Shown here: positions 5,720 through 56,496 of the stretch, piece after piece | How positions within the stretch are numbered: position 1 is the stretch's first letter | How the letters are laid out: the number at the start of each line of letters is the position of its first letter | DNA from: an uncultured Patescibacteria group bacterium | GTDB taxonomy: Bacteria; Patescibacteriota; JACMRA01 | Reading direction: 5' to 3' | Length of the DNA: 64,000 nucleotides | NCBI GenBank assembly: GCA_938041505.1 | Contig: CALITC010000005.1 | Coordinates: forward strand, 1,106-65,105 | Position numbers and translations under genes: made by a program | The notes under the pieces: model-generated | Database searches by the model: none | What the model saw: the letters and a program-made list of their open reading frames with translations, nothing else | Told to the model about the DNA's origin: nothing

Positions 5720-7858
5720 ATGACCATGAATTCGACTTACGATCCCAAGCAATATGAAGCTAAGATCAACACCAGCTGGCAAGAACAAAAAGTAGGAGAA
5801 GTCAATGAGCAAGGCCCGGATGCTAGTAGCACTCATACAATCCTTATGCCACCTCCGAATCTCACAGGAGTGTTGCACGCGGGGCATTCGTTCCAGCACT
5901 ATCTCATGGATACTATTTCCAGAATCCATCGCCAGCAAGGAGATCTGAGTCTATGGCAACCGGGGATCGATCATGCAGGTATTCAACTCGAAGGTGTTAT
6001 AGATAAGATGTTTAAGAGTGGGGATGTTGAGCTACCAAATGAAGTAACTACGCACTCAGATTATCCAGAAGATATTGATGAACTACCCAAATTCCTCAAA
6101 ACTAATTTTAGACAATTATGGCTCGAAACCGCTTGGTCCAAAGTCAACGAATGGCGAAATACTCAGCGAGATCAAGCCACTATCTTAGGTGATACTCCAG
6201 ACTATTCTCGCAATCTATTCACGCTCGATCCGCAAGCAGTGGACATGGTCAATCATGCTTTTATAAAGTACTGGGAAGATGGTCTCATCTACAAAAAATC
6301 CTACATGATCAACTGGTCTGTAGGCTTACAAACTGCCCTCAGTGATGTCCCTGAAGATATCGGTCACGAGACGCGCAAAGACCCGTTTGTTACCATTAAA
6401 TACCAATTGGCCCTCAGCCCAAATAGCGAGTATGAACCAATCCTTACAGACGATTTTGTCAAAGTAACTACGGTTCGCCCAGAGACAATTTTCTCAGATC
6501 AATTTATCTTAATTAACGAGCATGCATCTGCAATCTCCACAGAAATACTTGAAAAGATAAAATCCAGCGAAGAGGCTTTTTTGGTATTACCGTTGTCTCA
6601 AACAGATCTCTTTGAACAGAAGATATTTTTGCCGATTAAGCTGACGGTTGATAGCCAAGAAGTTGATCCAGAATTCGGCACAGGCGCGCTCAAAGTAACC
6701 CCTCCTCACGATATTCACGACTACGAGCTCTACGAGAAATATCAGCTCAAGTCTTTTGTAATCCAGGATGGTAAGCGAGTAACGAGAGATCCGTTTGAGA
6801 GTAGTGTTCAACGAAGTGGTAAGTTATCAGCATTGGCCGGACAGTTCAAAGGTTTGACGATGTTAGAAGGGCGCAAACAAGTAACCAAAGCTTTGATCGA
6901 ACGTGAACTTATACCACACGTTGAGTCAAGCACATCTAACGACGAATCCAAGGTGGAGAAGTGGATCGCCAATTATTTCAAGACCACTCCGAAATCTGTG
7001 ACAGGGTGGGGTAATTACGAGGTGCAATGGCAATATGAGCACAATGTAACTATTTGTGAGCGAAGTAAAACCATCGTGGAACCGCTTATTAGTGAAGAGT
7101 TCTTTATTTCATATTCAAACCCAACCTCCAGAGACAACAAAACTTTGGCACGGCTTGCCACAGAAGGTATAGAAGAAACAAACTATTACCCAGCTAACTT
7201 CAAAAACCTTGCCAATAACTTCATAGATAACATCCACGACTGGTGTATCTCCAGAGATTTGGTCTGGGGGCACTCCATGCCGATCTGGTACAACTTAGAG
7301 GTTAATCCGGACAAACGATTCTACAGTAGCCAAGAAGTAGCTTCAGACACTCAAAAGGCTGCCAGTTGCAAAGTTCAAGTGGACGAACCTACGGAGCCTG
7401 GCACTTGGGTCCAAGAAACCAAAATTCTCGATACTTGGTTTTCTTCTTGTCTGTGGCCACTCTCTTCACTTAACTACCTCCAACATCAAGAACATTTCGC
7501 TAAATTCTACCCAACTGACGAGATGATAACTGCCCGCGAGATCTTCTACGCCTGGGTAGTTCGTATGACTATGCTCGGTAAATACTTTACTGGAGAAATA
7601 CCTTTTAAATCTGTAGTAATCACCCCCACAATCCAAGACGAAAAAGGTCGAAAAATGAGTAAATCACTCAAGAACGGCCTGGACCCAGTCGAGGCCATAG
7701 ACAAATTCTCCAGCGATTCCCTCCGCCTAGCCATGCTCTCAGGCATGTACCCAAATAGAAATATGAAAATGGGTGGCAGTATTGCTGACAAATCACTAGA
7801 AAAATACCGTAACTTCGGCAACAAACTCTGGAACGTAGCCAGATTCTTAAAAGACTAA
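5720..7858 (+). CDS. valS: Valyl-tRNA synthetase, N-terminal piece (Rossmann catalytic core plus CP1 editing domain)
   Basis: HIGH-type PPPNLTGVLHAGH, editing-domain TTVRPETIFSD, KMSKS. Ends ...YRNFGNKLWNVARFLKD then TAA, the point where the anticodon-binding domain normally begins. Confidence 0.9.
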   Translation: MTMNSTYDPKQYEAKINTSWQEQKVGEVNEQGPDASSTHTILMPPPNLTGVLHAGHSFQHYLMDTISRIHRQQGDLSLWQPGIDHAGIQLEGVIDKMFKSGDVELPNEVTTHSDYPEDIDELPKFLKTNFRQLWLETAWSKVNEWRNTQRDQATILGDTPDYSRNLFTLDPQAVDMVNHAFIKYWEDGLIYKKSYMINWSVGLQTALSDVPEDIGHETRKDPFVTIKYQLALSPNSEYEPILTDDFVKVTTVRPETIFSDQFILINEHASAISTEILEKIKSSEEAFLVLPLSQTDLFEQKIFLPIKLTVDSQEVDPEFGTGALKVTPPHDIHDYELYEKYQLKSFVIQDGKRVTRDPFESSVQRSGKLSALAGQFKGLTMLEGRKQVTKALIERELIPHVESSTSNDESKVEKWIANYFKTTPKSVTGWGNYEVQWQYEHNVTICERSKTIVEPLISEEFFISYSNPTSRDNKTLARLATEGIEETNYYPANFKNLANNFIDNIHDWCISRDLVWGHSMPIWYNLEVNPDKRFYSSQEVASDTQKAASCKVQVDEPTEPGTWVQETKILDTWFSSCLWPLSSLNYLQHQEHFAKFYPTDEMITAREIFYAWVVRMTMLGKYFTGEIPFKSVVITPTIQDEKGRKMSKSLKNGLDPVEAIDKFSSDSLRLAMLSGMYPNRNMKMGGSIADKSLEKYRNFGNKLWNVARFLKD

Positions 7859-7923: not shown

Positions 7924-9006
7924 TTAGCTATTTTTGATCATCTCCTCTATTGCTAAGTAAGCTGATTCTGAGGCTCCGTGAACTGCGATTGTATTTCCTT
8001 TTGTATTATATGCCTCTCCTGCAAAAAATATTTTATTTTCTATCGAAGAAGCTATTTTTTTTACATTTCCTTTTCTCATCGAATAACTTCCTCTGATAAA
8101 TGGTTCTTTGGACCAATTTTGAATGACATGCTTTTTATAATACTTCGAAGCCTTTCTATTGTATATTGAGTCCAGCTCTTTTAAGACAAGTTCAATGATA
8201 TTTTTATCAGATTCTTGAGATGTATATTTAGTAGCTGCAGCTCCATGAGCAAATAACCCCAAAATATTTTTGTTTGAATGTTTTCCGTAAGCTGCATCAT
8301 AGTATCCGTGATCTTGAACAAAAGGATTCTTTAGGATTGTATTTAGTTCAAGCATATCAGGGTAAAATTTGATAGAGAACTCAATAAAAATTTTTATTCC
8401 ATCACTAACAACTTCCTGATCTATCGCTTGTTGTTTGTCTGTCGAAAGGTTTGGTATAAACTCAATATATCTGTCTTGTAATAATTTTATAGGAACTGTT
8501 AACAAAACTTTGTCACATTTAAATACTTTTCCTGAATTAGATTGCACTATTACTTGAGAGGATGAATAATCAATCTTTGTTACTGGCGTATTATACAAAA
8601 AATTTTTATGTATTTCAGAGGTTATTAGTTCATCAAAACAATCAAACCATGTTTTATTGACAAATTTGTAGTCACCAATGAATTGTAAAATGAAACGAAC
8701 CCAGCTAATGTTTTTTATTGTATTGTTTTTGAATAATTGTATTTTTCTAGGAACATATTTGAACATTGTGTAATCTGGATCCTTTCTTTTTAAAAGCTTA
8801 TCTAATACTTCGGGTTTGGCTTTAATTGATGTATGAACCCACTCAGCACCTAAATCAATTGGGAAATCTGCAAAATTATTTTCCTTTTTGATTCTTCCTC
8901 CATGAGTACTTGAAGCTTCTAATACTTTAAAAGCTATACCTTTTTTTGATAAAATATGTGCTGCCGTTATGCCAGCAGCTCCGGCACCGATTATTATTAC
9001 TTTCAT
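7924..9006 (-). CDS. FAD-dependent amine oxidase-family oxidoreductase
   Basis: N-terminal dinucleotide fold MKVIIIGAGAAGITAAHILSKKGIAFKVLEASSTHGGRI and C-terminal FFAGEA...HGA motif of flavin amine oxidases. Internal ATG at 9006 chosen as the start. Confidence 0.75.
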   Translation of the reverse strand: MKVIIIGAGAAGITAAHILSKKGIAFKVLEASSTHGGRIKKENNFADFPIDLGAEWVHTSIKAKPEVLDKLLKRKDPDYTMFKYVPRKIQLFKNNTIKNISWVRFILQFIGDYKFVNKTWFDCFDELITSEIHKNFLYNTPVTKIDYSSSQVIVQSNSGKVFKCDKVLLTVPIKLLQDRYIEFIPNLSTDKQQAIDQEVVSDGIKIFIEFSIKFYPDMLELNTILKNPFVQDHGYYDAAYGKHSNKNILGLFAHGAAATKYTSQESDKNIIELVLKELDSIYNRKASKYYKKHVIQNWSKEPFIRGSYSMRKGNVKKIASSIENKIFFAGEAYNTKGNTIAVHGASESAYLAIEEMIKNS

Positions 9007-9245
9007 AATTGTTGGTTTAAGATGTAAAACTATGTTCAAGTGAATTTATAAGCATATCGAGTATACAACTATAAAAACAATGATTATGTAACATCCTTTT
9101 GTCTAATGATAATTGATCTAAATACCTATGATAATCAAAAAAGTAATGTAGAAAATTTGAATCATGAGTATTGTTTCACGACGGGGCTTTTTTATGGGTG
9201 GTGATTTATTTGCAAATATTATTATCTTTCGATATACCTAATACA

Positions 9246-9794
9246 ATGGAATCTCAAATCAAAGTTGTTCGAAGCCGAAGGCGTAGCCTAAGCTTGACTG
9301 TGGATCATGAAGGGCAGGTCATCATCAAAGCGCCAAATCATATTAAGAACGAATTCATCGTAGATTTTGTAAAGCAAAAAAAGCGCTGGATCCAAAAAAA
9401 CCTGGCCAAAGTCCAAGTGTCCAAAGAACGCGTGAAAACTATCGATCTCTCTAAAGAAAAACTAGCCATCTTAAAATCAAGATCGCAAGAAATTCTCTCA
9501 AAAGAGACTCAAGAGGTAGGTGCAAGAATGAACTTAGTGCCAGCAAATATCAAAACCACATCCGCCAGAACGTTATGGGGGTCTTGCACTGTCGACAATA
9601 TAGTCCGGCTAAACTGGCGCCTGTTGCTGGTACCGCAAGAATGCAGGGAATATGTAATCATCCACGAATTAGCTCACATAACTCACAAAAACCACTCGGG
9701 AGAATTTTGGAATTTGGTTGGTCAACATTGCACTAACTACAAAGAACTTCGACAGAAGCTCAAAGAATATTCGTATTTATTGAAGTCCACCTAG
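9246..9794 (+). CDS. YgjP-like (DUF45/M48-related) zinc metallopeptidase
   Basis: HELAHITHKNHSGEFW (HExxH plus downstream H..FW) and the overall about 180-aa size are typical of the family. ATG at 9246 is preferred to the TTG at 9171. Confidence 0.8.
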   Translation: MESQIKVVRSRRRSLSLTVDHEGQVIIKAPNHIKNEFIVDFVKQKKRWIQKNLAKVQVSKERVKTIDLSKEKLAILKSRSQEILSKETQEVGARMNLVPANIKTTSARTLWGSCTVDNIVRLNWRLLLVPQECREYVIIHELAHITHKNHSGEFWNLVGQHCTNYKELRQKLKEYSYLLKST

Positions 9795-10468
9795 GCTTTT
9801 TTGGAAGTGATATAACGAAGGATGATAGTATTAAAGAGTAGCAAGTCCTTATCCAAGCCGTCTGTATGCCGCATATGCTCAACCATCTTTTTGTAGTAGT
9901 CACCGACGGTGAACGGGGATTCCAAAAAACGCTGTGTATTTTTCAAGATTTTGATATAAGTCTCCTTATCTCTTTGCATAAGTTCGCTTCTATTCTCGAC
10001 CATAAAACGGGCAAAATCAGCAACCATCAACGGCGAGCCATCTTCCACACTCTTGATCTGCTCGAGATAAAATTCTTCAACATTACTCATCTGTTTCTTG
10101 GTAGGGGTGTTGGTAATACCGCCATAAGACTGAGGTTGACTGTCCAAATGCTTAGCAAAGTGCGTCAGAAGAACTCGGAGAGTCACCAGTAGTTCTGTTC
10201 TGTTTGGAGATGGATGGCTTTTTACTTTATCAAATAGCTCAACCCATAGCGAAGTAGCTAAGATTGTATTGGGTGTATCACATACCAAATCATAAAAATG
10301 TTCTAAAAAATCTTCATTAAGCCCATTCAACTGATGGGTTGAAGGCAGTTCCAAGAATGTCCGCAGAGCAGGGAGGATTGAGCTAGTATGCTCTACTGCA
10401 TATAGCTTCTCCAAATGAGCACGCTCTAGTGTGCTAAACCTCTCAATAGTAGGTCGATTCTGTTCCAT
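9791..10468 (-). CDS. Hypothetical protein (225 aa)
   Basis: Long ORF with a convergent 4-nt overlap with the preceding gene. No recognisable motif. Confidence 0.6.
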   Translation of the reverse strand: MEQNRPTIERFSTLERAHLEKLYAVEHTSSILPALRTFLELPSTHQLNGLNEDFLEHFYDLVCDTPNTILATSLWVELFDKVKSHPSPNRTELLVTLRVLLTHFAKHLDSQPQSYGGITNTPTKKQMSNVEEFYLEQIKSVEDGSPLMVADFARFMVENRSELMQRDKETYIKILKNTQRFLESPFTVGDYYKKMVEHMRHTDGLDKDLLLFNTIILRYITSKKA

Positions 10469-10873: not shown

Positions 10874-11662
10874 ATGACCGAATTAGCACCTGCCTCGCAG
10901 TGGATTCTCCAGCGATATATAAGCCTAGAAGAGGAACTGGCCATTAACTTAGAGAAATACACTCTTGGTCATTCTATTGACGAGTTGTATAAGTTTCTCT
11001 GGGATAGTTATGCTGACTGGTACGTTGAGTACCTCAAAACAGACGACATGCAAAAAGAATTTGCCAAGCAGCTCTTTACCCAGTTTGTAATCACACTCCA
11101 TCCATACATGCCCTTTGAGACAGAGGCGTTGTGGACAGAGTTCGCTGACCAAGACACTCTGCTAGCCAAAGAATTGAAAGACGCTAATTGGAGTAAAAGC
11201 TTCGAGATCAATCCACAAGCTGTGCAGGAGTTCCAGAACATTATTGATGTCATCACGAGCCTCCGGTCCCTGCGAGGCTTGTTCGCTATTGATCCTGCCA
11301 CCAAACTCGAAGTGAACTCTAACTCCAAAGAGCTGGCAACATACAAAGAGTATCTCAATCTTTTAGGGCGCACCACAATCCAAGAAGGTGAGGAGCTATC
11401 GTATAAGCTTGAACAGGGAAGAATCAAATTCAGTATCGACATACTCAGCTATATTCCGGATGTGGAGGTAGAGAAAAATCGTACTAACAAGAATATTCAA
11501 GCCCTGGAAAAACAAATCTTTGGTCTAGACAAAAAACTAACTAATTCAAAATTCCTCGAGAATGCCACCGAAGAGGTTATCGAAGAGTCCAAAGCCAACT
11601 TGTATTCACGGAAGCAAGAACTTATGGAGCAACAACAAAAACTACAACTTTTTAACAACTAA
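10874..11662 (+). CDS. valS: Valyl-tRNA synthetase, C-terminal piece (anticodon-binding helical domain plus C-terminal coiled coil)
   Basis: Begins MTELAPASQWILQRY... with FLWDSYADWYVEYLK (class Ia F.CDWYlE..K motif). Ends in a heptad-rich coiled coil (..QALEKQIFGLDKKLTNSKFLENA..), the ValRS C-terminal signature. Confidence 0.85.
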   Translation: MTELAPASQWILQRYISLEEELAINLEKYTLGHSIDELYKFLWDSYADWYVEYLKTDDMQKEFAKQLFTQFVITLHPYMPFETEALWTEFADQDTLLAKELKDANWSKSFEINPQAVQEFQNIIDVITSLRSLRGLFAIDPATKLEVNSNSKELATYKEYLNLLGRTTIQEGEELSYKLEQGRIKFSIDILSYIPDVEVEKNRTNKNIQALEKQIFGLDKKLTNSKFLENATEEVIEESKANLYSRKQELMEQQQKLQLFNN

Positions 11663-26245: not shown

Positions 26246-29200
26246 TTAAGCTACGTCGCCGTAAGGCTTAGTCTGGAGAGGAGAGGCTTCAACTACAGCA
26301 TGTTTTGGCGGAATATTCATAGTGCTTAATGAGTAAGTTCCATCATCGGAACGTCCTGCGTAATAGGTTTCCTTATTTGATATATTACTAGAGGAAAGAC
26401 TATCAAGCCTTCGCGGAGCCAAAGGAAGGGTGTTAAGCAAGTTTTCAATTATTTTCGCTGCTTGTTTATCTGCGATACCGTATATTGGTAAGTCAAGTTT
26501 TACAGAATTTGATGCATTATAACTGCTTTCGGTCACAGGAACAAAACCGCGATCAGCTAAAATTAGTTTATCGGTATATCCTTTCTTAGTAACAAAAGGG
26601 AGTACGTTAAGATCTATAAATTGCTGAATTATTTGGGCCTCTTCGACGGTGGCGGGCACATTTTTGAAAAGCTCTGCCGATTCTTCAACTCGTTTCTCCA
26701 TTTGTTTGGCGTTAGGGCGAATAAGGTCTTGTCGAGCAAATTCTACTTCCTCATTAACTTCATCCAACTCCTGCACTTCGGTATACTCTATCTCAGGACT
26801 CCTCTCGATAACCGTTGGCCCATTATTACCACCATATGCAATATCATTAACAAACCCGAAGCCATCAATAGGTTTGGCAGTCTCGTCTTCGCTGAGGTTT
26901 CGAAAATCAGGCTCAGAGATATTACTAGATGACTCCTTTGCTCCACTCTCTAAGCTTACTACCTGTACGTCCTCCTCAACATTATTTGGAGGGAGTTGGT
27001 TGTGTGGAGAAGATTCAAATAATTTATCGTTATTGTATTGCTGAGCTCTGTTATGAATTGATGAATTAGGTGTGCTCGTAATCTTATATTCAAAAGTCTC
27101 ATCATTATATTCAACGTTATAGCCAAACTGAGCGAGAGCTGGAATGAGCGAATTCTCAATAATTTGGTTCTCTTTTTCAGTAATTGGGCGGTCAGTATTG
27201 TTCCAGTCAGAGACGACAGTATAGGCAATTTTCTCAAACGTTTTATCATTTTTAATCATCATCTGATCCAGGACATCAATTTCTCTTCGAATACCCTCAG
27301 CTTCTCGGTATTCGCTTTCTGTCATGGTTTGCTGGTCTTTGATTTCCTGCAGTCTTTGCATATATACACCGCGAGCGTTCAAATTACTTTGTAGATTGTC
27401 CACATGTTTGTTCAGCATTTCCTCAATTTGCCGATAATCTTCTGAGATATACTCAGCTTGGATGTCCTCTTGTGGTTTGTTATTGTACGCAACTATTTCG
27501 CCCGGGTTCGATTTCACTGTGTAACTAAATTCAGCTTTACCATCGTTGTTAAGTCTGGTGTTATCTTCGATTGCAAATCCAAGTGCTGCAAGCTCTGCTT
27601 GAAAGTCCTGACTTTTCATGACTGCTTGAAAGTCCTTCATGCGAGAATATTCTTCGTAAGACTGACCTTCCACTGGATTTGATCCTGTAGGGTAATTTAA
27701 GGCTCTTTCTGTGTAACTCCTTATATTCTCTACAAGTGTATCGACATCTTGAATGGTATCCAGCCCGCCTTTGGTAGTAATGGAATTAAGTTCCTTAAGT
27801 TGCTTTTTGTAAGCAAATTCTTGTTCTGCGATGGTTGACCAGTCATTTTGATTCTTAAATGGCTTATAGTTAATATTCTTGTACCCTCCAAGTTTCTGCT
27901 CTTGCCCATCAAAGTCAACATACGACTGGGCAGAAGGGGCAGTAGTAACTAAGAACTTTTTAAGATCTTTGTCATAAGCCAGGCCAAATTGAGAATTCTG
28001 CAGCTGCGGAATGATTTTGTCTCTTATCAGGGTATTGTTATATTCAACAGCAACCAAAGATTGGTCGAGAAAGCCTTTATATTTATGGTTTATTTCCTGT
28101 AAGAGTTCCTGGTTTGCAGTATTCGAATCTGGAGCTGTTTTAATCCATTTGGGGTCTTGAATATTACTAAGTAGATTCTTGAAAAAGTTGCGCTTAGTTC
28201 TATCAAGCTGGCGAAGGTCGTTGTTATTCGCACTTAATTGATCAGATATAGTATCAAGCTGATTTTCTAACTCTGACTTCTTATCAGAATTCTGCTCAAC
28301 TGAATCTGTTGATTGCTCCTCAAAAGGATTATTGTCGGTATTTTCAGACTGCTCAATTGTAGATATCTCTTGCTTTATAATACTAATCTGTTCGTTCAAA
28401 GATTTTCCTTTATCAGAAAGAGCCTGAATCTGCGTGTTTATTTTGTCAGTGGATTTGATTGCGTCCTCAATATTATCAAAAGCTTGTGATGGGGTTGAAA
28501 ATTGCTCATTGTTCAAAATAAATTTTGGATCTTGTCGAAGTTTCTCAGTAGCTGCTTTTTTTTCCTCAGCTTCTAGCTTTGCTTTTTCACGAGCTTCTTC
28601 TTCGTATTTGGCATAAGCTTCCTTAAACTCGTCCTCACCAATACTAACATCGTAAGATGGAGAGCTTTTTGTTTGTTCAGATGGGTTTATTTTATATTTG
28701 AATAGCGGTCCTATTCCTACACTAATCCCAATATCCTCTAACTGAGGTAGAATAGAATTTGTGATTATATCTTTCGTCAATTCTTTGGACCTTTGAGGGT
28801 CTTTTTGGTAGGTAGGGTGCCTAGTTATCCATTTTGGATCGTTTATTTTCTCAACGAGCATTCGCGCAAAACTAGCTACATCTTCTTCAGACAAAGTACC
28901 TTCCAATTCTTCAATGCGGTCGTCAAATGCTTCGATATTGTCTTTAATAGTGGATATTTCTGATTGAATTTCTAGAGACTCGTTCGAATCATCTTCAAAA
29001 TCAACTAAATCTGCTTCCATCTTAACACTTTGAGATATCAAATCTTGGCGTGCGTTCTTGGCTTCGGTTATAGTGAATTGATTTCTTTTTATAAAGTCGA
29101 TTGCGGTGTCTAAATTCGCTTCTGCTAGAGCTGGGTTCGAAAACTTATTTTTGCCTAGAAGAAACTTCTTATTATCACTCTCCGACTCGACTTTGCCGTA

Positions 29201-29692
29201 TGATCGATTAAAAAGATCTTCAGAGTAATCTCTTGTATTTTTAAATGTCTTTGCTGAACGGTTTGAGATACTATTTACTTTCTTATCTTTATTTAGGGTT
29301 TCATTAAATTGATAAGCTTGTTGTTGCACACTGTCTTCACTATATTGATTTTGTGTTTTTTCAGTTGTTGGATTTGATGTTAGATTCGAATCCTGCGAAA
29401 CTTCTTTATTTCCTGATATGAAATTATAGCCACTGGTAATAAGGCCTGCGCCCCATCTGAAGATGCCCGAATCACCTAAGTCCCAACTAAACTGAAGCTT
29501 GAGTGATTCGCTATTCTTTTTAACAACCTTAGGATCACCACCTTTTTGCTTTTTTCTAATTTCTTGACCGTATTTAATATGTTTTTCTTTTTCTGCTTTT
29601 CGTTTTTCAGCTATACTTGGCTTCCTTTTCTCCCTGTTATTCTGGAGGTTGTTATTCTTACCAATTTTTTTAATTCCTTCAAAAAAAGCCAT
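26246..29692 (-). CDS. Giant (1148 aa) modular coiled-coil protein of unknown function
   Basis: Two about 200-aa repeats (FLLGKNKFSNPALAEANLDTAIDFI...DPKWITRHP...ILPQLEDIGISVGIG / FILNNEQFSTPSQAFDNIEDAI...DPKWIKTAP...IIPQLQNSQFGLAYD) plus shorter [IL]P.[LF]...G[FY] modules. Confidence 0.7.
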   Translation of the reverse strand: MAFFEGIKKIGKNNNLQNNREKRKPSIAEKRKAEKEKHIKYGQEIRKKQKGGDPKVVKKNSESLKLQFSWDLGDSGIFRWGAGLITSGYNFISGNKEVSQDSNLTSNPTTEKTQNQYSEDSVQQQAYQFNETLNKDKKVNSISNRSAKTFKNTRDYSEDLFNRSYGKVESESDNKKFLLGKNKFSNPALAEANLDTAIDFIKRNQFTITEAKNARQDLISQSVKMEADLVDFEDDSNESLEIQSEISTIKDNIEAFDDRIEELEGTLSEEDVASFARMLVEKINDPKWITRHPTYQKDPQRSKELTKDIITNSILPQLEDIGISVGIGPLFKYKINPSEQTKSSPSYDVSIGEDEFKEAYAKYEEEAREKAKLEAEEKKAATEKLRQDPKFILNNEQFSTPSQAFDNIEDAIKSTDKINTQIQALSDKGKSLNEQISIIKQEISTIEQSENTDNNPFEEQSTDSVEQNSDKKSELENQLDTISDQLSANNNDLRQLDRTKRNFFKNLLSNIQDPKWIKTAPDSNTANQELLQEINHKYKGFLDQSLVAVEYNNTLIRDKIIPQLQNSQFGLAYDKDLKKFLVTTAPSAQSYVDFDGQEQKLGGYKNINYKPFKNQNDWSTIAEQEFAYKKQLKELNSITTKGGLDTIQDVDTLVENIRSYTERALNYPTGSNPVEGQSYEEYSRMKDFQAVMKSQDFQAELAALGFAIEDNTRLNNDGKAEFSYTVKSNPGEIVAYNNKPQEDIQAEYISEDYRQIEEMLNKHVDNLQSNLNARGVYMQRLQEIKDQQTMTESEYREAEGIRREIDVLDQMMIKNDKTFEKIAYTVVSDWNNTDRPITEKENQIIENSLIPALAQFGYNVEYNDETFEYKITSTPNSSIHNRAQQYNNDKLFESSPHNQLPPNNVEEDVQVVSLESGAKESSSNISEPDFRNLSEDETAKPIDGFGFVNDIAYGGNNGPTVIERSPEIEYTEVQELDEVNEEVEFARQDLIRPNAKQMEKRVEESAELFKNVPATVEEAQIIQQFIDLNVLPFVTKKGYTDKLILADRGFVPVTESSYNASNSVKLDLPIYGIADKQAAKIIENLLNTLPLAPRRLDSLSSSNISNKETYYAGRSDDGTYSLSTMNIPPKHAVVEASPLQTKPYGDVA

Positions 29693-35930: not shown

Positions 35931-37337
35931 ATGTTCCCAGCAAAACCCAAAAACTTTGTTCACATTATTCTCCTTGCTGTGTATGGTGTTTTTCTTGTCT
36001 ATGTATCCAGCTTGCTTAGTAGTTATCATATCGACGAAGGGTTTCAGTTGTTGTTGTCTCAGCTGCGCTTTGGCCAAATAATCAGTGCCACAGGAATGGA
36101 TGCACACCCTCCTCTTTATTCTGTTCTTCTTGGGGCTTGGCTGAAGATATTTGGCAGCACGCTTTTCTCAGCACGTAGCTTATCGATAGTGTTTTCTTTG
36201 GTAAGTGCATGTCTATTTTACAAGCTATTGAGACTAAAATTAGGGGAGCGATCATCAATATTTGGTACGATTGTCTATGTAACTTTTCCTCAAATTGTTG
36301 TGTATGGTTTTGTTGCTCGCAATTATGCCCTTTTATTATTACTGATTAACACAACCTTCTATTTGCTCTTTAAAAATTGGTCTAAGAATTTAACCAACCT
36401 AGATATAGGATTATTAGCAGCTTCTCAACTGGCTTTGCTCTATACCCACAATCTTGGTCTGGTGCTATTTGTTCTGATACAAGTAATGATTTTATTAACA
36501 AAATCTAAGTGGACTAGACTCATGCCATATTTGAAAGTTGCAGCAATTACTGCGCTTTTCTACGCCCCATGGGGTCAGGTGCTGTACGGACAGATCGCAA
36601 CTAAAGCCAACGAAGCAGGATGGTTGGGGTTTTATCCGCACGAAGCATTGCGCGATTTTGGCTTTACACTTGCACCTTTATACAAGCAAGGTGAATGGGT
36701 TTTTGCTGTAGTCTATGCCGGAATCTTGTATGGCATAACTACCAAAGTATGGCGCAAAAATCGATCGCCTTATGCCAAGACTGTGGCAGTTTATACAATA
36801 CTGTTGATGGTAATGATGTTTGTGCTTTCTTTTGTTTCTCCACTCTTCTATTATAGATATCTAATGATTACACTGCCTTTGCTAGCATATCTAGTAGCTC
36901 ATAGCTTACCGCTAAAAAAAGAGTTTGGTATACTGGCCTCGGTCGCGATAGTTGTTGCAAATCTTGTTTTCTTAAACTCTGTAACTCAGAGTATGGATGG
37001 TTCGGAGTTTTATAATGTGGAAGACCATCTGGCATCTAGTGAACTATCGAGTGTCATCATCATAGACTCTCCAGCATATTTTTATCAGCTCAAGCATGCC
37101 GGTTACACAAATCTCCATCTTTTCGATCCGCAAAAAGACAGTTTTTCGTGGTCCGGAGTTTCGATACTAGAGCCCGAAGACTATTTACGCAACAGCGATC
37201 TAACCCGCTCCAAAATCCAATATATCGATGTCGCAGGCAGAGAATTTGCCGACCACTTCTTCGATAGAGGCTACGAAATCACCGATAATAATGCCACAAA
37301 AAAAGCTAACATCTATGTGTTGACCAGGTTCGAGTAA
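35931..37337 (+). CDS. GT39/GT-C family (ArnT/PMT-like) membrane glycosyltransferase
   Basis: About 11 TM spans, first-loop acidic motif HIDEGFQ, HPPLY, and a soluble C-terminal domain. Confidence 0.7.
   Translation: MFPAKPKNFVHIILLAVYGVFLVYVSSLLSSYHIDEGFQLLLSQLRFGQIISATGMDAHPPLYSVLLGAWLKIFGSTLFSARSLSIVFSLVSACLFYKLLRLKLGERSSIFGTIVYVTFPQIVVYGFVARNYALLLLLINTTFYLLFKNWSKNLTNLDIGLLAASQLALLYTHNLGLVLFVLIQVMILLTKSKWTRLMPYLKVAAITALFYAPWGQVLYGQIATKANEAGWLGFYPHEALRDFGFTLAPLYKQGEWVFAVVYAGILYGITTKVWRKNRSPYAKTVAVYTILLMVMMFVLSFVSPLFYYRYLMITLPLLAYLVAHSLPLKKEFGILASVAIVVANLVFLNSVTQSMDGSEFYNVEDHLASSELSSVIIIDSPAYFYQLKHAGYTNLHLFDPQKDSFSWSGVSILEPEDYLRNSDLTRSKIQYIDVAGREFADHFFDRGYEITDNNATKKANIYVLTRFE
37197..37282 (+). 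repeat. Direct repeat copy A (3' end of the GT39 gene), 84/86 identical to 37801-37886
   Basis: By-eye alignment: GATCTAACCCGCTCCAAAATCC...GAAATCAC versus GATCTAAGCCGCTCC...GAAATCAC, with two mismatches. Homology continues, more diverged, to each reading frame end. Confidence 0.85.
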
Positions 37338-37450
37338 TAGCCTTGGAATTAGGAATGAGGTCTAATGATACATCAGAAAAATAAGACCAAAAAAATAGAC
37401 ACTATAAATAGCATCTATACAATTATTCAAATAATTGAGATTATAATAAT

Positions 37451-37699
37451 CTAAGAAACAAGAAACACCGGCCTATGTCTGGTTAGTCGAAGCCCAGCTG
37501 TGGCGTAGGCATTTGTGCCACAACGGACTGGTGCTGTAACACCTTTCTCATTGAGCCACTGTTGGAACTCATCAGCTCCAAAAGATTTCGGGACATTTCC
37601 CAAAAATATCTCACCTGGTCTTAGTTCGATATGATTTTCATTATCACGTACTAGAACAATGTTATTAAGCTGTTTTTGAATATCAGTAGTAGGGGGCAT
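37451..37699 (-). CDS. Hypothetical protein (82 aa) carried between the two repeat copies
   Basis: ORF MPPTTDIQKQLNNIVLVRDNENHIELRPGEIFLG... No motif recognised. It is the only ORF inside the 604-bp repeat unit. Confidence 0.45.
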   Translation of the reverse strand: MPPTTDIQKQLNNIVLVRDNENHIELRPGEIFLGNVPKSFGADEFQQWLNEKGVTAPVRCGTNAYATAGLRLTRHRPVFLVS

Positions 37700-37800
37700 T
37701 GATGTCCTCTTGAATTTGAATTTTCATATGTTAACATACAAAATATTAACTGTCAATAATATTTTTTTAAAACCTACTACCAATTTCTGAGAGCTAAACG

Positions 37801-37940
37801 GATCTAAGCCGCTCCAAAATCCAATATATCGATGTCGCAGGCAGAGAATTTGCAGACCACTTCTTCGATAGAGGCTACGAAATCACGGATAAAAAAGACA
37901 CCCGCAAAGCAAATGTCTATGTCTTGAGTAAATTCAAATT
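37801..37940 (+). pseudogene. Orphan 3' fragment of a GT39 glycosyltransferase gene (displaced C-terminus)
   Basis: Encodes DLSRSKIQYIDVAGREFADHFFDRGYEITDKKDTRKANVYVLSKFK, versus the intact gene end DLTRSKIQYIDVAGREFADHFFDRGYEITDNNATKKANIYVLTRFE. An in-frame TAA lies immediately upstream (37795-37797). Confidence 0.7.
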
Positions 37941-37973
37941 ATACATAAGTAAATTATATGCTATAATTACAGT

Positions 37974-38264
37974 ATGACTGATCAACAAGATAAAAAAAGA
38001 TCCTATTTCTGGCCCTCATTCTGGTCTGGTATTGGATGGCAGATACTCATTAGTGTAGTATTGGAATTGATTCCGGCTATGGCAAACAGCGAGTATGTTG
38101 GGCTGATATCGCTTGTTATTTTAGCGCTAATCGGTAGGTACTTAAACAAAAAATATGGTGCAAAATTTAATGTCAAAGGCTTTGTTTTGTCGGTATTTGC
38201 TGGGCTAATTTTGAGTTTTATCATTGTAGGACTTTTCGCTGCTTTATTGCTAATTTTAATTTAA
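37974..38264 (+). CDS. Small membrane protein (96 aa)
   Basis: Three hydrophobic spans. No motif recognised. Confidence 0.5.
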   Translation: MTDQQDKKRSYFWPSFWSGIGWQILISVVLELIPAMANSEYVGLISLVILALIGRYLNKKYGAKFNVKGFVLSVFAGLILSFIIVGLFAALLLILI

Positions 38265-38277
38265 AATTATAGATATC

Positions 38278-39438
38278 TTAATTATCTGTAAGCCTCCTAA
38301 ACTCTTTCACAAAATTCTGAGAACTAAATGCGTCTGAGCTTTTACGAATTGTTGGTACATTGAATTTCATACTTTCGAATTCGGTAATTGCTTGGGCAAG
38401 GCTGCTACTTGTTTGCTCCTCAAAAAAAACGCCATTCACCCCAGATTGCACATACTCTAGTGCCCCACCGTCCTGGTAGGCGATAAGTGGTACACCACCA
38501 GCAAGCATTTCAATCGGTGCTATGCCAAAATCCTCCTTACCAGGGAATAAAAATGCTGTACATGTCGCCACCAGTTCCTCTACCTCTTCTTGAGAGGTAC
38601 GTCCTAAAAATTCAACCAACCCTTTAGCCTTCGGATGACCCTGCTCATAATCTGTCACGATTTGTTTGAGTTGATCTATCTCAGCCGGTAAAGCAGAAGC
38701 TCCAGATATTTTGAGTCTACGACCTAATTGCAAGCAAGCTTTGATCGCCAGGTCCAACCTCTTATGGAAACTCACTCTTCCGTGACAAAGATAAAAAGCC
38801 CGTTCGCCATAAGTCGTACGCCGGTGAATATTCTTGAATGTCGAAGTGTCTACAGGTGGGTATATTACTCTTGAGTCTATACCGTAGACCTCTTTGACAG
38901 TATCATGGATATTTTGAGAATTAGTCACCGTAATAGTGCTCTTATCTTCTAAGTATTTTATTGCTCTCAAGTCCAGCTTACGCAACCACCATTTGAAGAA
39001 AGGAATGACTATTCTATAGGTCATACTCAAGCTTTGATGGTCTGTTTCGGTAACCAGCCCATGTAAAAATCTTGTAGGGGAGTGGATATAATGCACAATC
39101 TTTTTGCAGTTCTGGATCTGCACATTTTTACCACAATATGTGGAAGAAATAATAACAAGATCAAAATCCTTGATAGTGACACGGCTCATTGCAAGAGGGT
39201 ATAACCAAAACAAATGCTTGAAGAATTTTGGAAATCGAGATATCAATCCCTGAGCCCAGGTGGTGTGGATACGTTTTTCAATTCCAGCTTTGTTGATCTC
39301 AGTCCAGTTCTCAAAGCGTTCGGGTGTGTACAAACTAGTGAATACATCTGCACGAGGGTACATAGATAACCATTTTTCTACCAACTTCTCTGCTCCACCG
39401 GCCTGGTGAAGATAATCATGTACTATAGCTACTCGCAT
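38278..39438 (-). CDS. GT4-family (glycosyl transferases group 1) glycosyltransferase
   Basis: RVAIVHDYLHQAGGAEKL N-terminus and the EDFGIAPIEMLAGGVPLIA (E-x7-E region) motif. Confidence 0.85.
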   Translation of the reverse strand: MRVAIVHDYLHQAGGAEKLVEKWLSMYPRADVFTSLYTPERFENWTEINKAGIEKRIHTTWAQGLISRFPKFFKHLFWLYPLAMSRVTIKDFDLVIISSTYCGKNVQIQNCKKIVHYIHSPTRFLHGLVTETDHQSLSMTYRIVIPFFKWWLRKLDLRAIKYLEDKSTITVTNSQNIHDTVKEVYGIDSRVIYPPVDTSTFKNIHRRTTYGERAFYLCHGRVSFHKRLDLAIKACLQLGRRLKISGASALPAEIDQLKQIVTDYEQGHPKAKGLVEFLGRTSQEEVEELVATCTAFLFPGKEDFGIAPIEMLAGGVPLIAYQDGGALEYVQSGVNGVFFEEQTSSSLAQAITEFESMKFNVPTIRKSSDAFSSQNFVKEFRRLTDN

Positions 39439-42350: not shown

Positions 42351-43760
42351 ATGGTAGACACTAATCCATACACTTTTCATGAATCTGTGGAAATTTCTAG
42401 ATCTGGTACATCTCATTCGGCATACGATCATGCAGGTGTACATATTGGTCAATATTATGCTACAGATTATGCAAGTGCTTCTTCTGATAGAATTGATATT
42501 TTATCAACCCGCGCCGGAACGGTTTTATTTGCGGGTTGGGATACATCTGGATATGGAAACCTTGTAATCATCCAATATGATAACGGCGAGTATGGTTATT
42601 ATGCGCATATGCGTGACAACACTCTTAATGTCTCTGTTGGCGAAGAAATAGGGCAAGGTCACATTCTAGGGGATATGGGTAACACTGGTTTCTCCACTGG
42701 CCGCCATCTCCACTACGAACGTCGGATACAAAGATTTGGACAAACTACGTCAAACACTTATATTCCAAATTTTGTTGGATTTTTTGAACCAGGATCGACA
42801 ACAGAACCAGAGCCTGAAATTCCTTTTGCTAAACATGATTTTAACGGTGATGGTATTTCTGATGTTGTTGTCCATAATAACACAACTCAAGCAGGAGAGA
42901 TATCTATCTGGTTCATGAATGAGAATGGCGATCTTGGATCTACTAAGCGAACTCTCCCTCTAGGATGGAGTCCAGACTGGAAAATCCTTTCTGCCGATGT
43001 TGATGTAGATGGTGATAAAAAAGGAGATATCTATCTCTACAATACTGTAACCAACGAAACTACTTTCTGGCTTGATAACGATTTGGCAGGCTTGAATTCT
43101 GTTCGTGGAGTTACAATGCCAGATGGTCATCAATATCAATTTGGAATTGTAGCGGATATCAACGGTGATAGTCGTGATGAAATTGGTTGGTACCGTGAGT
43201 CTGATAATCGTCTAGTATTTCATTGCTACGATGAGAACGCTCAGTATACTGGGTATTCAGCAGTCGATTCGCCTGATTCAGGTTACAGCTTGTTTGAAGC
43301 TGGTGACTTTAATAACGACGGAATTGAAGATCTATTAATGTATAATGCTACAACTGGCGGCCTATACACTGATTTCTACGACTCCAATGGTCAAGTAAGT
43401 TCTACTTTGACTCATGCAACTGTCTCACCTTCATCTGGTTGGAGACCTGCAGCTGTTATCGACGCTAATAATGATGGTCATGACGATCTGTTCTTTATGA
43501 GAGATCGTGGTGATATTACTCAATGGCAAGGTAACGAAGACGGATCTTTAAGTTCAGTTAGTTACACAAACCTACCGTTTAATCTTGGTTGGGAATTAGG
43601 TTCCTCAGGAGACTTCAACGGCGATGGCTTTGAAGAGTTAAGTTTTTACCGTCCCAGCGATGGTCGTCATACCATTTTATTGAACGGTGCTGACGGCCAG
43701 TTCGCAGGCGATGCAAGCTTCATTGCAAATCAAGTACCTGATTGGGATATTATTGCTTAA
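42351..43760 (+). CDS. M23 (LytM-type) metallopeptidase fused to FG-GAP/VCBS-like repeat beta-propeller
   Basis: HSAYDHAG...D..., GYGNLVIIQYDNGEYGYYAHM, GNTGFSTGRHLHYE. Then six D.[ND].DG..[DE] blades (FNGDGISDV, VDGDKKGDI, INGDSRDEI, FNNDGIEDL, ANNDGHDDL, FNGDGFEEL). Confidence 0.8.
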   Translation: MVDTNPYTFHESVEISRSGTSHSAYDHAGVHIGQYYATDYASASSDRIDILSTRAGTVLFAGWDTSGYGNLVIIQYDNGEYGYYAHMRDNTLNVSVGEEIGQGHILGDMGNTGFSTGRHLHYERRIQRFGQTTSNTYIPNFVGFFEPGSTTEPEPEIPFAKHDFNGDGISDVVVHNNTTQAGEISIWFMNENGDLGSTKRTLPLGWSPDWKILSADVDVDGDKKGDIYLYNTVTNETTFWLDNDLAGLNSVRGVTMPDGHQYQFGIVADINGDSRDEIGWYRESDNRLVFHCYDENAQYTGYSAVDSPDSGYSLFEAGDFNNDGIEDLLMYNATTGGLYTDFYDSNGQVSSTLTHATVSPSSGWRPAAVIDANNDGHDDLFFMRDRGDITQWQGNEDGSLSSVSYTNLPFNLGWELGSSGDFNGDGFEELSFYRPSDGRHTILLNGADGQFAGDASFIANQVPDWDIIA

Positions 43761-43800: not shown

Positions 43801-44737
43801 TAATAAACCCCAATCACGAAACAACATACGCAAATATCTTCCGAATGTAATGCGCTAGATATCCATTGATTGATCTAGGTAAACTAGTTACTAATCCATA
43901 CCGTTCTTTCAGCTCTCCAAAGACTGTTTCGACTCGACTACGTTTGTTCATCATTTTTTGTTGCCAGTGGGTGGCTAATGTCTTCATATTCTTGCGCACT
44001 GTAGTGAGTATATGATTCTGATTTATCCACGCTGCTTGAATTAGTTCTTGTCCTAGATACCCAGCGTCTCCTACCACAAGACACTTCTTCATCTCTTTTA
44101 AAAATTCTTTGAGTGGTGTCCGATCATTAACACTCCCAGTAGTGAATCGAAAACTAAGCAGCTCTCCTTGTTTGTTGCAAATGATGTGGAGCTTCATTCC
44201 GTAGAACCATCCCAAACTACTTACTCCACGACTAGAAATACTCTTGGCGGTTCTATGTTTAGTCCACCGATAGATCTTACACACTGGTAAACTAGTAGAG
44301 TCCACAAAACACACCACATCTTCTTTACTAACTAGCTGCAGGAGAGTGTGAATACTCTGCAGCAAGTACGGAGCGTACTTGTTCATTAGATTCACGAAGT
44401 TTGCATACTCAGGGAGTGTGAAGTCACTGCCATACTTCTCTTTCAAAAGTAAATGCAAGGCTTTAAGGGTCTTAATCTCGTACTTACATTGCAAGACCAC
44501 GATTGTCCCAATCTCACTTAAAGATAAAGAGGGCTTTCTCCCAACTCTTTTAGGGGAGAACAATGCTAAGTAGTCATCTAAAATACAGTAAAGAGTGACA
44601 AGATCTAAATTTTGAAGTGAAGTAGGAGTGTTTGCTAAAGAGATAGTTGAAGTCATACAACTCCACTGTCCCTCATTTCAAACAACAATTACAACCCCTA
44701 ACGGGGTTGTGTTGTATTTCATGATTCGGGTTGAATA
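43801..44737 (-). mobile_element. IS982-family insertion sequence (approximate ends)
   Basis: Single DDE transposase ORF flanked by imperfect inverted repeats: AACCCCAATCACGAAACAACA (from 43806) versus the reverse complement of ...TGTTGTATTTCATGATTCGGGTT (to 44732). No clear target duplication seen. Confidence 0.6.
43814..44656 (-). CDS. IS982-family DDE transposase
   Basis: FVDSTSLPVCKIYR...GVSSLGWFYGMKLHIICNKQGELLSFRFTTGSVNDR...VGDAGYLG...RSRVETVFGELK are the blocks characteristic of IS982 transposases. Confidence 0.85.
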   Translation of the reverse strand: MTSTISLANTPTSLQNLDLVTLYCILDDYLALFSPKRVGRKPSLSLSEIGTIVVLQCKYEIKTLKALHLLLKEKYGSDFTLPEYANFVNLMNKYAPYLLQSIHTLLQLVSKEDVVCFVDSTSLPVCKIYRWTKHRTAKSISSRGVSSLGWFYGMKLHIICNKQGELLSFRFTTGSVNDRTPLKEFLKEMKKCLVVGDAGYLGQELIQAAWINQNHILTTVRKNMKTLATHWQQKMMNKRSRVETVFGELKERYGLVTSLPRSINGYLAHYIRKIFAYVVS

Positions 44738-56311: not shown

Positions 56312-56496
56312 CTATAACAAAACAAAGCTTTCGTGTCTATTTGAAAGTACGCTAAGCAGCGAGGAGTTTAACTAACAAATACTTGATACGGTTTTTGGAC
56401 TGGAGCACCCTTGTGTTTATTTTGCAAGCAAGGTGGTGGTTATGAATATCATAATCCTGAGACAGTCTATGTTCCTGCTCAAGACCCCTGGATATT

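Follow-up and report, generated by a model that had tools for sequence, protein, structure and literature searches.

The locus considered here lies in a 64,000-nucleotide (nt) stretch of DNA (hereafter, the window) from an uncultured Patescibacteria group bacterium (assembly GCA_938041505.1, contig CALITC010000005.1), and carries the 3′ end of a membrane glycosyltransferase gene twice, once as part of an intact gene and once as a displaced fragment. The surroundings are those of a surface-glycosylation cluster of a marine bacterium of the Patescibacteria, or candidate phyla radiation (CPR)-like, kind. The intact gene (35931–37337, forward strand) encodes a PMT_2-type (GT-C, GT39/GT83-like) membrane glycosyltransferase of 468 amino acids (aa), whose last 18 codons we call tail A. 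To its right follow a small gene of 82 aa on the reverse strand (37451–37699), the displaced second copy of the glycosyltransferase 3′ end, which runs into a different in-frame C-terminus (tail B, 37887–37977), an open reading frame (ORF) of 96 aa on the forward strand (37974–38264) and, as a conserved right flank, an intact GT4-family glycosyltransferase gene on the reverse strand (38278–39438; Pfam Glycos_transf_1, E = 3.5e-21).

The larger protein matches Pfam PMT_2 (PF13231, E = 3.8e-13) over residues 59–214, which places it in the PMT/GT-C superfamily; the NCBIfam mannosyltransferase model scores far under its cut-off, and an exact-protein look-up returned nothing on record. The designation GT39, under which the gene had entered the initial annotation, is a loose label, the family evidence for the gene consisting of the PMT_2 match. 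Homologues of the protein were found at 62%, 38% and 36% identity, with synteny conserved.

A repeat search of the window recovered a direct repeat of 143 nt with 85% identity (37197–37339 and 37801–37943, spacing 604), the only pair longer than 60 nt in the window. Its first 86 nt (copy A, 37197–37282; copy B, 37801–37886; both on the forward strand) match at 84 positions, with mismatches at repeat positions 8 and 54, whereas the nucleotides after them match at only 36 of 55, with the frame kept (Fisher p = 3e-7 for the drop in identity). The repeat of 86 nt with two mismatches is therefore as the initial annotation had given it, and so are the two in-frame peptides that continue from it; the homology, however, spans 143 nt and is not confined to an 86-nt block with a loose tail behind it. 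At 37800|37801 the homology breaks off, the sequences upstream of the two copies agreeing at 18 of 60 positions.

Copy A comprises codon D423 through the stop of the PMT_2-type gene, with its 86-nt segment covering D423 to T451, and so forms the gene's in-frame 3′ end; copy B, recovered at E = 2e-20 when the gene product was searched against the window with tblastn, is read in the same frame. Because an in-frame TAA (37795–37797) stands two codons upstream of copy B and no usable start codon is present, copy B is an untranslated, displaced orphan C-terminus, as had already been proposed. Its frame has no stop at the position where copy A stops and continues to a TGA (37975–37977), which overlaps the ATG (37974–37976) of the 96-aa ORF in the form ATGA. 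Between the two copies, the 82-aa gene is the only sizeable ORF, again in agreement with the initial annotation. Both copies start exactly at a GATC, so that the junction reads ...CG|GATC...; this tetranucleotide occurs 236 times in the window against 223 expected, and is thus not depleted.

DNA of this locus is held by a single public run, a marine metagenome, of which an independent assembly (the Logan contigs, k=31) is available. At the repeat these contigs are interrupted, which is unavoidable in a k=31 graph, and one of them spans 37253–37838 and so includes the insert and the junction, with tail A to the left and the beginning of copy B to the right. Across the locus, depth is flat (17.6 in the left flank, 18.2 in the insert and 16.2 in the right flank), and the contigs of the run contain no second strain at 85% identity or more. 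Since a mixture of two strains would leave each version with about half the depth of the flanks and would contain no such junction, the junction 37800|37801 is real and essentially fixed in the population. A form of the locus from which the unit is deleted was not seen in the contigs of this run, which drop rare variants.

Tails, small genes and the probable GT4 remnant

The closest relative found for the glycosyltransferase (protein P0003, 62% identical) is encoded on a Logan contig, L001. The next relatives are 38% and 36% identical (contigs L002/L003 and L004/L005, respectively), and all others fall below about 34% over partial alignments; among JGI metagenome contigs, relatives reach 32% identity or less only. 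Single-protein and alignment queries found no related locus in the GTDB species genomes, and a degenerate DNA pattern for FADxFFDRGYEI had 0 matches in genome and viral contigs. In enolase similarity (60–67%), SR1, Peregrinibacteria and other Patescibacteria metagenome-assembled genomes (MAGs) come nearest. On L002–L005, the gene order is enolase, RecX, glycosyltransferase (forward), a small gene (reverse) and GT4 (reverse), and L001 likewise has the glycosyltransferase (forward), a small gene (reverse) and GT4 (reverse). Each of the five contigs carries a single glycosyltransferase gene and no repeat. The initial annotation had allowed for copy B being what a deletion left of two tandem full-length paralogs; none of the relatives has two such genes in tandem, so that copy B is not a remnant of this kind.

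In L001, the small gene stands directly after the glycosyltransferase stop on the same strand as the 82-aa gene, with the GT4 stop 50 nt upstream of its start. Because the small gene at this site differs between lineages (82 and 85 aa in the window and L001, 118 and 141 aa in L002 and L004, and 96 aa in the window only), the interval between the glycosyltransferase and GT4 is a small variable region. Upstream of the glycosyltransferase, L001 has two ORFs of 339 and 485 aa (164–2698) in place of RecX and enolase, without a match in the window. In a Patescibacteria MAG (locus L021, 6324–9242), a GT4 homologue (54%) adjoins RecX and enolase, and there is no PMT_2 gene; for this reason, the PMT_2 gene together with the variable region may be an insertion specific to the present clade.

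Tail A (37283–37337, forward strand), made up of the last 18 codons and a TAA, is of the L001 type. Its peptide, ATKKANIYVLTRF, is identical in L001, whose glycosyltransferase ends in ...ATKKANIYVLTRFK before the stop, and its DNA is 82% identical to that of L001 (45/55 nt), against 63% for the gene as a whole and 36/55 nt between tail A and tail B. Tail B is about equally distant from tail A and from L001 (34–36/55, or 62–65%): tail A and L001 agree against tail B at 13 sites, and tail B and L001 against tail A at 3. Judging from these comparisons, tail A followed by the 82-aa gene is the arrangement common to the window and the duplication-free L001. The intact glycosyltransferase of the window ends in this tail.

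Tail B (forward strand) differs from tail A at 18 nt in 18 sense codons, 11 of them at third positions (p = 0.014), and the amino acid replacements are conservative (N/K, K/R, I/V, T/S and R/K). When tail A was mutated at random with an equal number of changes, the observed BLOSUM score was reached in only 0.016% of trials (p = 0.00016). Because of the third-position bias, the conservative replacements and this simulation, tail B appears to have diverged under purifying selection and not as a decaying duplicate; it probably stems from a working allele and was part of a functioning gene until recently. Over the 86-nt segment, by contrast, copy B is 98% identical to copy A, whereas the orthologous stretch of L001 is 73% identical (63/86). 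Taken together with the divergent tail, this identity marks copy B as a mosaic that shares recent ancestry with copy A up to position 86 and a far older divergence after it. A glycosyltransferase with tail B may have had a C-terminus 12 residues longer and been coupled to the 96-aa ORF, since the ATGA overlap is the layout of translationally coupled genes.

The 82-aa gene encodes a lineage-specific small protein with no assigned function, and it is the syntenic homologue of the 85-aa gene of L001: the two proteins match with BLASTP at E = 6e-5, and their Smith–Waterman score of 54 was reached by none of 3000 shuffles (22.9 ± 4.1). The ORF has a codon-usage score of +0.21 in its own frame and of about −0.3 in the other frames, on a scale where the window's long genes give 0.26 ± 0.10 for in-frame chunks and −0.34 ± 0.16 off frame. 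The 96-aa ORF scores +0.10 in its own frame, equal to the glycosyltransferase gene, and is negative in the others; on codon usage, both ORFs look coding. Ahead of the ATG of the 82-aa gene, a Shine–Dalgarno sequence (AAGAGGA) lies at a distance of 6 nt, and a promoter-like site (TTGACA, 17 nt, TG-TAACAT) is found at 37728–37756 on the reverse strand. A second promoter-like site (TATACA, 16 nt, TG-TATAAT; 37940–37967, forward strand) ends 7 nt before the ATG of the 96-aa ORF, the transcript of which is possibly leaderless; both sites are consensus matches only. The 96-aa ORF is an orphan; its predicted product, judging by the sequence, is a small multi-pass membrane protein.

Searches with the two small proteins were otherwise unproductive. 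Pfam, NCBIfam, PHROGs and PADLOC contain no family that matches either. In a set of 5.8 billion protein clusters, the 96-aa ORF matched itself alone, and a self-match was also the sole result of a word-index protein search with the 82-aa ORF; an exact-protein look-up of the 82-aa protein found nothing on record, and a PDB sequence search found nothing under E = 0.06. Its AlphaFold2 model, built without an alignment, was unusable (pLDDT 51). Over this region Rfam returned only sub-threshold noise, and for the G+C-rich part of the insert, the z-scores obtained by folding either strand were −1.2 and −0.7. An exhaustive HMMER search with the 82-aa ORF yielded four weak, multi-stretch matches to FG-GAP, Ig-like and other repeat proteins, which we regard as probably repeat-inflated, the matching motif being absent from the L001 homologue. 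The architecture of the top match, P0012, is also that of a Peptidase_M23 and FG-GAP-repeat protein encoded 4.6 kb downstream in the window (42351–43760, forward strand), and residues 41–68 of the 82-aa protein resemble the repeat linker GxDxFQxWLxxxG...GTNxAxA. The match to P0012 is probably inflated by repeats, a distant kinship being less likely.

At the right end of the 604-nt unit, a short reverse-strand segment (37748–37798) is a probable remnant of GT4, corresponding to its last ~17 codons (FSSQKLVVGFKKILLTV...). The intact GT4 proteins end in AFSSQNFVKEFRRLTDN in the window and in RFGSEYFEQEFRKVVLDK in L001, each followed by the stop; the window's GT4 is 76% identical to that of L001, and its synteny is conserved in L001–L005. 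At the DNA level, 37779–37798 matches 38309–38328 at 17 of 20 positions (shuffle p = 0.016), and the best match of a six-frame translation of 37700–37800 is at residues 371–383 of the 386 of GT4, with p = 0.006 against the C-terminal 45 aa and p = 0.10 against the whole protein. The remnant has the expected orientation, and the lost stop that it implies would lie ~48 nt before the ATG of the 82-aa gene, compared with the 50-nt spacer in L001. We consider the assignment of this segment to the GT4 C-terminus to be of moderate strength. On this assignment, the 604-nt unit would be a slice taken from an L001-type chromosome between a point in the glycosyltransferase gene and a point in GT4. Because the right end resembles GT4 and the left end lies within the glycosyltransferase gene, the ends of the unit appear to be pieces of the two flanking genes and not the ends of an element. 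The 82-aa gene would now be parted from GT4, with a promoter-like site of its own built over the remnant. Within the remnant, upstream of the −35 hexamer of that site, the Logan contig has one T fewer than the window in a T-run (~37762–37769), a difference that reflects homopolymer heterogeneity or an assembly error.

Probable recombination between two versions of the variable region, and alternatives to it

We consider it fairly likely that the locus is the scar of a heterologous tandem duplication, or C-terminal displacement, left by recombination between two haplotypes of the variable region. In version A, the 82-aa gene and GT4 would come after tail A, each on the strand opposite to it, as in L001; in version B, tail B would be followed by the 96-aa ORF on the same strand and then by GT4. 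For both versions, the boundaries of divergence would fall within the 3′ ends of the genes on either side. A slice of version A, extending from codon D423 to ~17 codons before the GT4 stop, would have been placed directly ahead of a copy of version B that begins at D423 too. One exchange would have been homologous, located in the near-identical DNA that precedes the tails (or in GT4, should the event have been the mirror image), and the second would have been the illegitimate join at 37800|37801 between the GT4 3′ remnant and the glycosyltransferase 3′ fragment. The likely route would be homology-facilitated illegitimate recombination (HFIR) of DNA from a sister strain, or unequal exchange between chromosome copies. 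HFIR would yield such a product when the illegitimate join falls inside the anchor, and the locus does combine one homologous boundary (86 nt) with one non-homologous join (37800|37801). As an outcome, the glycosyltransferase would have been kept intact with tail A and the 82-aa gene would be transcribed from its own promoter, while tail B would have become an untranslated orphan and the 96-aa ORF would have retained its promoter-like site. What is seen directly is the repeat, the drop in identity, the junction, the synteny and homology of the 82-aa gene and the selection signature of tail B. That a B-type strain existed, which polarity the event had and which enzymes took part we infer from this product, and either version may have been the resident one.

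Several points weigh against this haplotype recombination. Across the 86-nt repeat, linkage depends on the submitted assembly, and L001 is the only relative close enough to be informative; no pure A- or B-type genome was found at species level in the collections searched. The reading needs either a prior polymorphism bounded exactly at 37282/37886 or a later gene conversion of the 86 nt, neither of which is observed directly. The GT4 remnant, finally, is a short one, with p values that vary from 0.006 to 0.10 according to the test, and it was sought only after the hypothesis had been formed.

If the haplotype recombination did take place, the locus would provide a clean, small example of how poorly sampled CPR-like genomes exchange and stack versions of a variable region in a cell-surface glycosylation cluster, and of how the same process leaves gene ends orphaned and moves small lineage-specific genes to new positions. 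It would also mean that the footprint of a replacement end next to a displaced end is not diagnostic of an integrase-driven element, since recombination between haplotypes leaves an equal scar; the two can be distinguished by the remnant of the neighbouring gene at the far end of the unit. This distinction would be useful for annotation and for scans for integrative elements, though it does not amount to a new kind of system.

An event order in which the duplication came first is a rather unlikely alternative. A single genome would have duplicated in tandem the segment from D423 to the GT4 3′ end, with no need for a second strain at that time, and foreign DNA carrying tail B and the 96-aa ORF would later have replaced the second interior, or else the 86 nt would have been gene-converted; the scar would look alike, and only the order of events would differ. 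Such a history agrees with the way in which the end of the segment (the GT4 3′ remnant) is joined to its start (37197), as in a tandem duplication, and with the 86 nt being near-identical, like a young duplicate. A simple tandem duplication, with nothing further, was rejected, given that the copies share only 143 nt and possibly a GT4 tail of ~50 nt and that the interiors with the 82-aa and 96-aa genes are unrelated. The version with later replacement must also cope with these interiors, which have no detectable similarity and carry their genes on opposite strands, and it still requires divergent DNA to be imported, and the crossover to fall precisely at the 86/87 boundary, so that it takes at least as many steps as haplotype recombination. 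The signature of purifying selection in tail B, moreover, is not what would be expected of a decaying duplicate.

The initial annotation had interpreted the arrangement as the footprint of an element integrating into the 3′ end of a gene and bringing a replacement end, possibly a miniature cassette mobilised in trans. What survives of this interpretation is a recombination scar, with a near-identical exchange segment followed by divergent tails; the integrating element is not supported, the cargo and tail A being found in the repeat-free L001, among other reasons given below. That the 604-nt unit is a mini-cassette of this kind, independent of its own recombinase or mobilised in trans, or that it is a functional silent cassette, is very improbable even when the two possibilities are taken together. 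The former would be a non-autonomous integrative cassette, comparable to a cis-mobilizable element (CIME) or a very small integrative and mobilizable element (IME) that inserts site-specifically at the glycosyltransferase 3′ end, brings a replacement gene tail and relies on an integrase encoded elsewhere. Although the direct repeats do resemble attL and attR, with an intact gene to the left and a displaced tail to the right, the site is not empty in L001, which lacks the repeat and nevertheless carries the cargo homologue and tail A at the same position. Furthermore, an 86-nt block of near identity that passes into a homologous tail with 65% identity is unlike a short att core, and the unit ends on the right in what resembles part of GT4.

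Nor did searches lend support to such a cassette. The window, GTDB species genomes, viral contigs and protein collections, where the lineage is barely represented, were searched for another copy of the 86-nt segment, the insert or the 82-aa gene and yielded none. A tyrosine or serine recombinase was not detected either, be it within the 604-nt unit, as the initial annotation had already recorded, or among the ~50 ORFs of the window scanned with Pfam. The genome beyond the 66-kb contig is unseen, which leaves room for an integrase, and the k=31 graph alone is formally compatible with a B-type chromosome accompanied by a 604-nt circle at equal copy number, a combination that is biologically unlikely. 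Overall, we rate the mini-cassette as very unlikely. The only mobility gene of the window, encoding a DDE transposase (DDE_Tnp_1_3, E = 4.5e-40; 43814–44656, reverse strand), lies ~6 kb to the right, at the end of the glycosylation cluster.

Even less probable is the silent cassette, in which RecA-mediated recombination between the 86-nt segments would delete the 604-nt unit and fuse the glycosyltransferase to tail B. The 96-aa ORF would then lie directly downstream, so that the C-terminus and the small partner protein would be switched together, in the manner of the activation of orphan Rhs toxin modules. Direct repeats of 86 nt are long enough for homologous recombination, and surface-glycosylation clusters are a class of loci that often vary. 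Tail B is in frame and intact, its frame ending in the ATGA overlap with the 96-aa ORF, but this intactness is explained equally well by a recent event. The only data set shows no deleted form (with the caveat that contigs drop rare variants), the switch could work one way only, and a 19-aa tail has no known function. If a silent cassette were nonetheless present, it would be a C-terminal-displacement switch outside the polymorphic toxins, and in a CPR bacterium.

Least probable of all is an assembly artefact, whether by fusion of two co-occurring strains into a chimera or by wrong resolution of the repeat, for although the repeat collapses in the k=31 graph and permits two walks, the independent assembly contains the junction, the insert is as deep as its flanks where two strains would give about half, and the run shows no second strain at 85% identity or more.

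Other features of the window

Elsewhere in the window, the valyl-tRNA synthetase (ValRS) is split into a 712-aa N-terminal part (5720–7858, forward strand), which aligns to the Thermus thermophilus ValRS up to residue 589, and a 262-aa C-terminal part (10874–11662, forward strand), which aligns to residues 618 to 850 and comprises the anticodon-binding domain and the C-terminal arm. The ~3 kb between them hold genes for an amine oxidase (7924–9039, reverse strand) and a YgjP-like metallopeptidase (9171–9794, forward strand), as well as an unassigned ORF (9791–10468, reverse strand); the arrangement is either a genuine split gene or an insertion. Two further direct repeats, both intergenic, occur at 56496–56550/60607–60661 (55 nt, 84%) and 46242–46288/54169–54215 (47 nt, 87%), and may be shared regulatory or terminator motifs.

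No tRNA genes and no Rfam family matches were found in the 64-kb window, and many large ORFs, such as 520–3012 and 26246–29692, lack a Pfam match, a poverty that is typical of poorly sampled CPR-like genomes. The presence of SR1 among the nearest enolases prompted us to consider the alternative code with UGA as glycine. This was rejected: ORFs called with translation table 11 tile the window, 5 of the 41 long ORFs end in TGA, and the standard genetic code fits.

Comparison with known systems

Glycosylation and O-antigen-type islands are replaced by recombination in the flanking genes. The present locus resembles them in being a small hypervariable region whose divergence boundaries lie in conserved flanking genes; in those islands, however, one version usually replaces the other, whereas here both are kept in tandem.

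Integrative elements that target the 3′ ends of protein genes, together with their integrase-less derivatives (review: PMC5704250), offer a second parallel. Among integrative and conjugative elements (ICEs), ICESt1 and ICESt3 integrate in the 3′ end of fda. As in ICEs, IMEs and CIMEs located at gene 3′ ends, direct repeats flank the insert, the supplied end keeps the gene intact and the original end is displaced. Unlike in these elements, neither an integrase nor element-specific ends nor further copies are present in the data searched; the cargo occupies the same site in a repeat-free relative, and the right end resembles the neighbouring chromosomal gene.

HFIR has been documented experimentally (PMC3240628; de Vries and Wackernagel 2002, Prudhomme et al. 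2002 and Meier and Wackernagel 2003, cited in PMC5361080). In this process, one end of the incoming DNA joins by homology and the other illegitimately, and a join inside the anchor duplicates part of the anchor, comparable to the 86-nt segment described here. The process has been demonstrated in Acinetobacter, Streptococcus, Pseudomonas and E. coli rather than in Patescibacteria, and for the present locus it is inferred from the product alone.

The closest structural counterparts are C-terminal displacement in Rhs loci and the sequential displacement in type VI secretion (T6SS) effector–immunity arrays, for which the same mechanism has been proposed (PMC5361080); orphan modules of Rhs and CdiA were described by Jackson et al. 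2009 and Koskiniemi et al. 2014, as cited in Kirchberger et al. 2017 (PMC5361080). In all of these, an orphan 3′ fragment with a homologous start and a divergent tail comes after a full-length gene, every tail has its own small downstream gene, and a homologous anchor combined with an illegitimate join has been proposed. Here, tail A is followed by the 82-aa gene (convergent) and tail B by the 96-aa ORF (co-directional, with the ATGA overlap). There are differences as well: the gene concerned encodes a GT-C-type glycosyltransferase and not a polymorphic toxin, the variable tail has 18–19 residues without a toxin domain, one of the small genes is convergent, and a single orphan stands in place of an array. 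No toxin, immunity or defence family was matched by the tail-bearing protein or the small ORFs in Pfam, NCBIfam, PHROGs or PADLOC. The locus thus shows a known kind of recombination scar in a new setting, the glycosyltransferase gene of a CPR-like bacterium.

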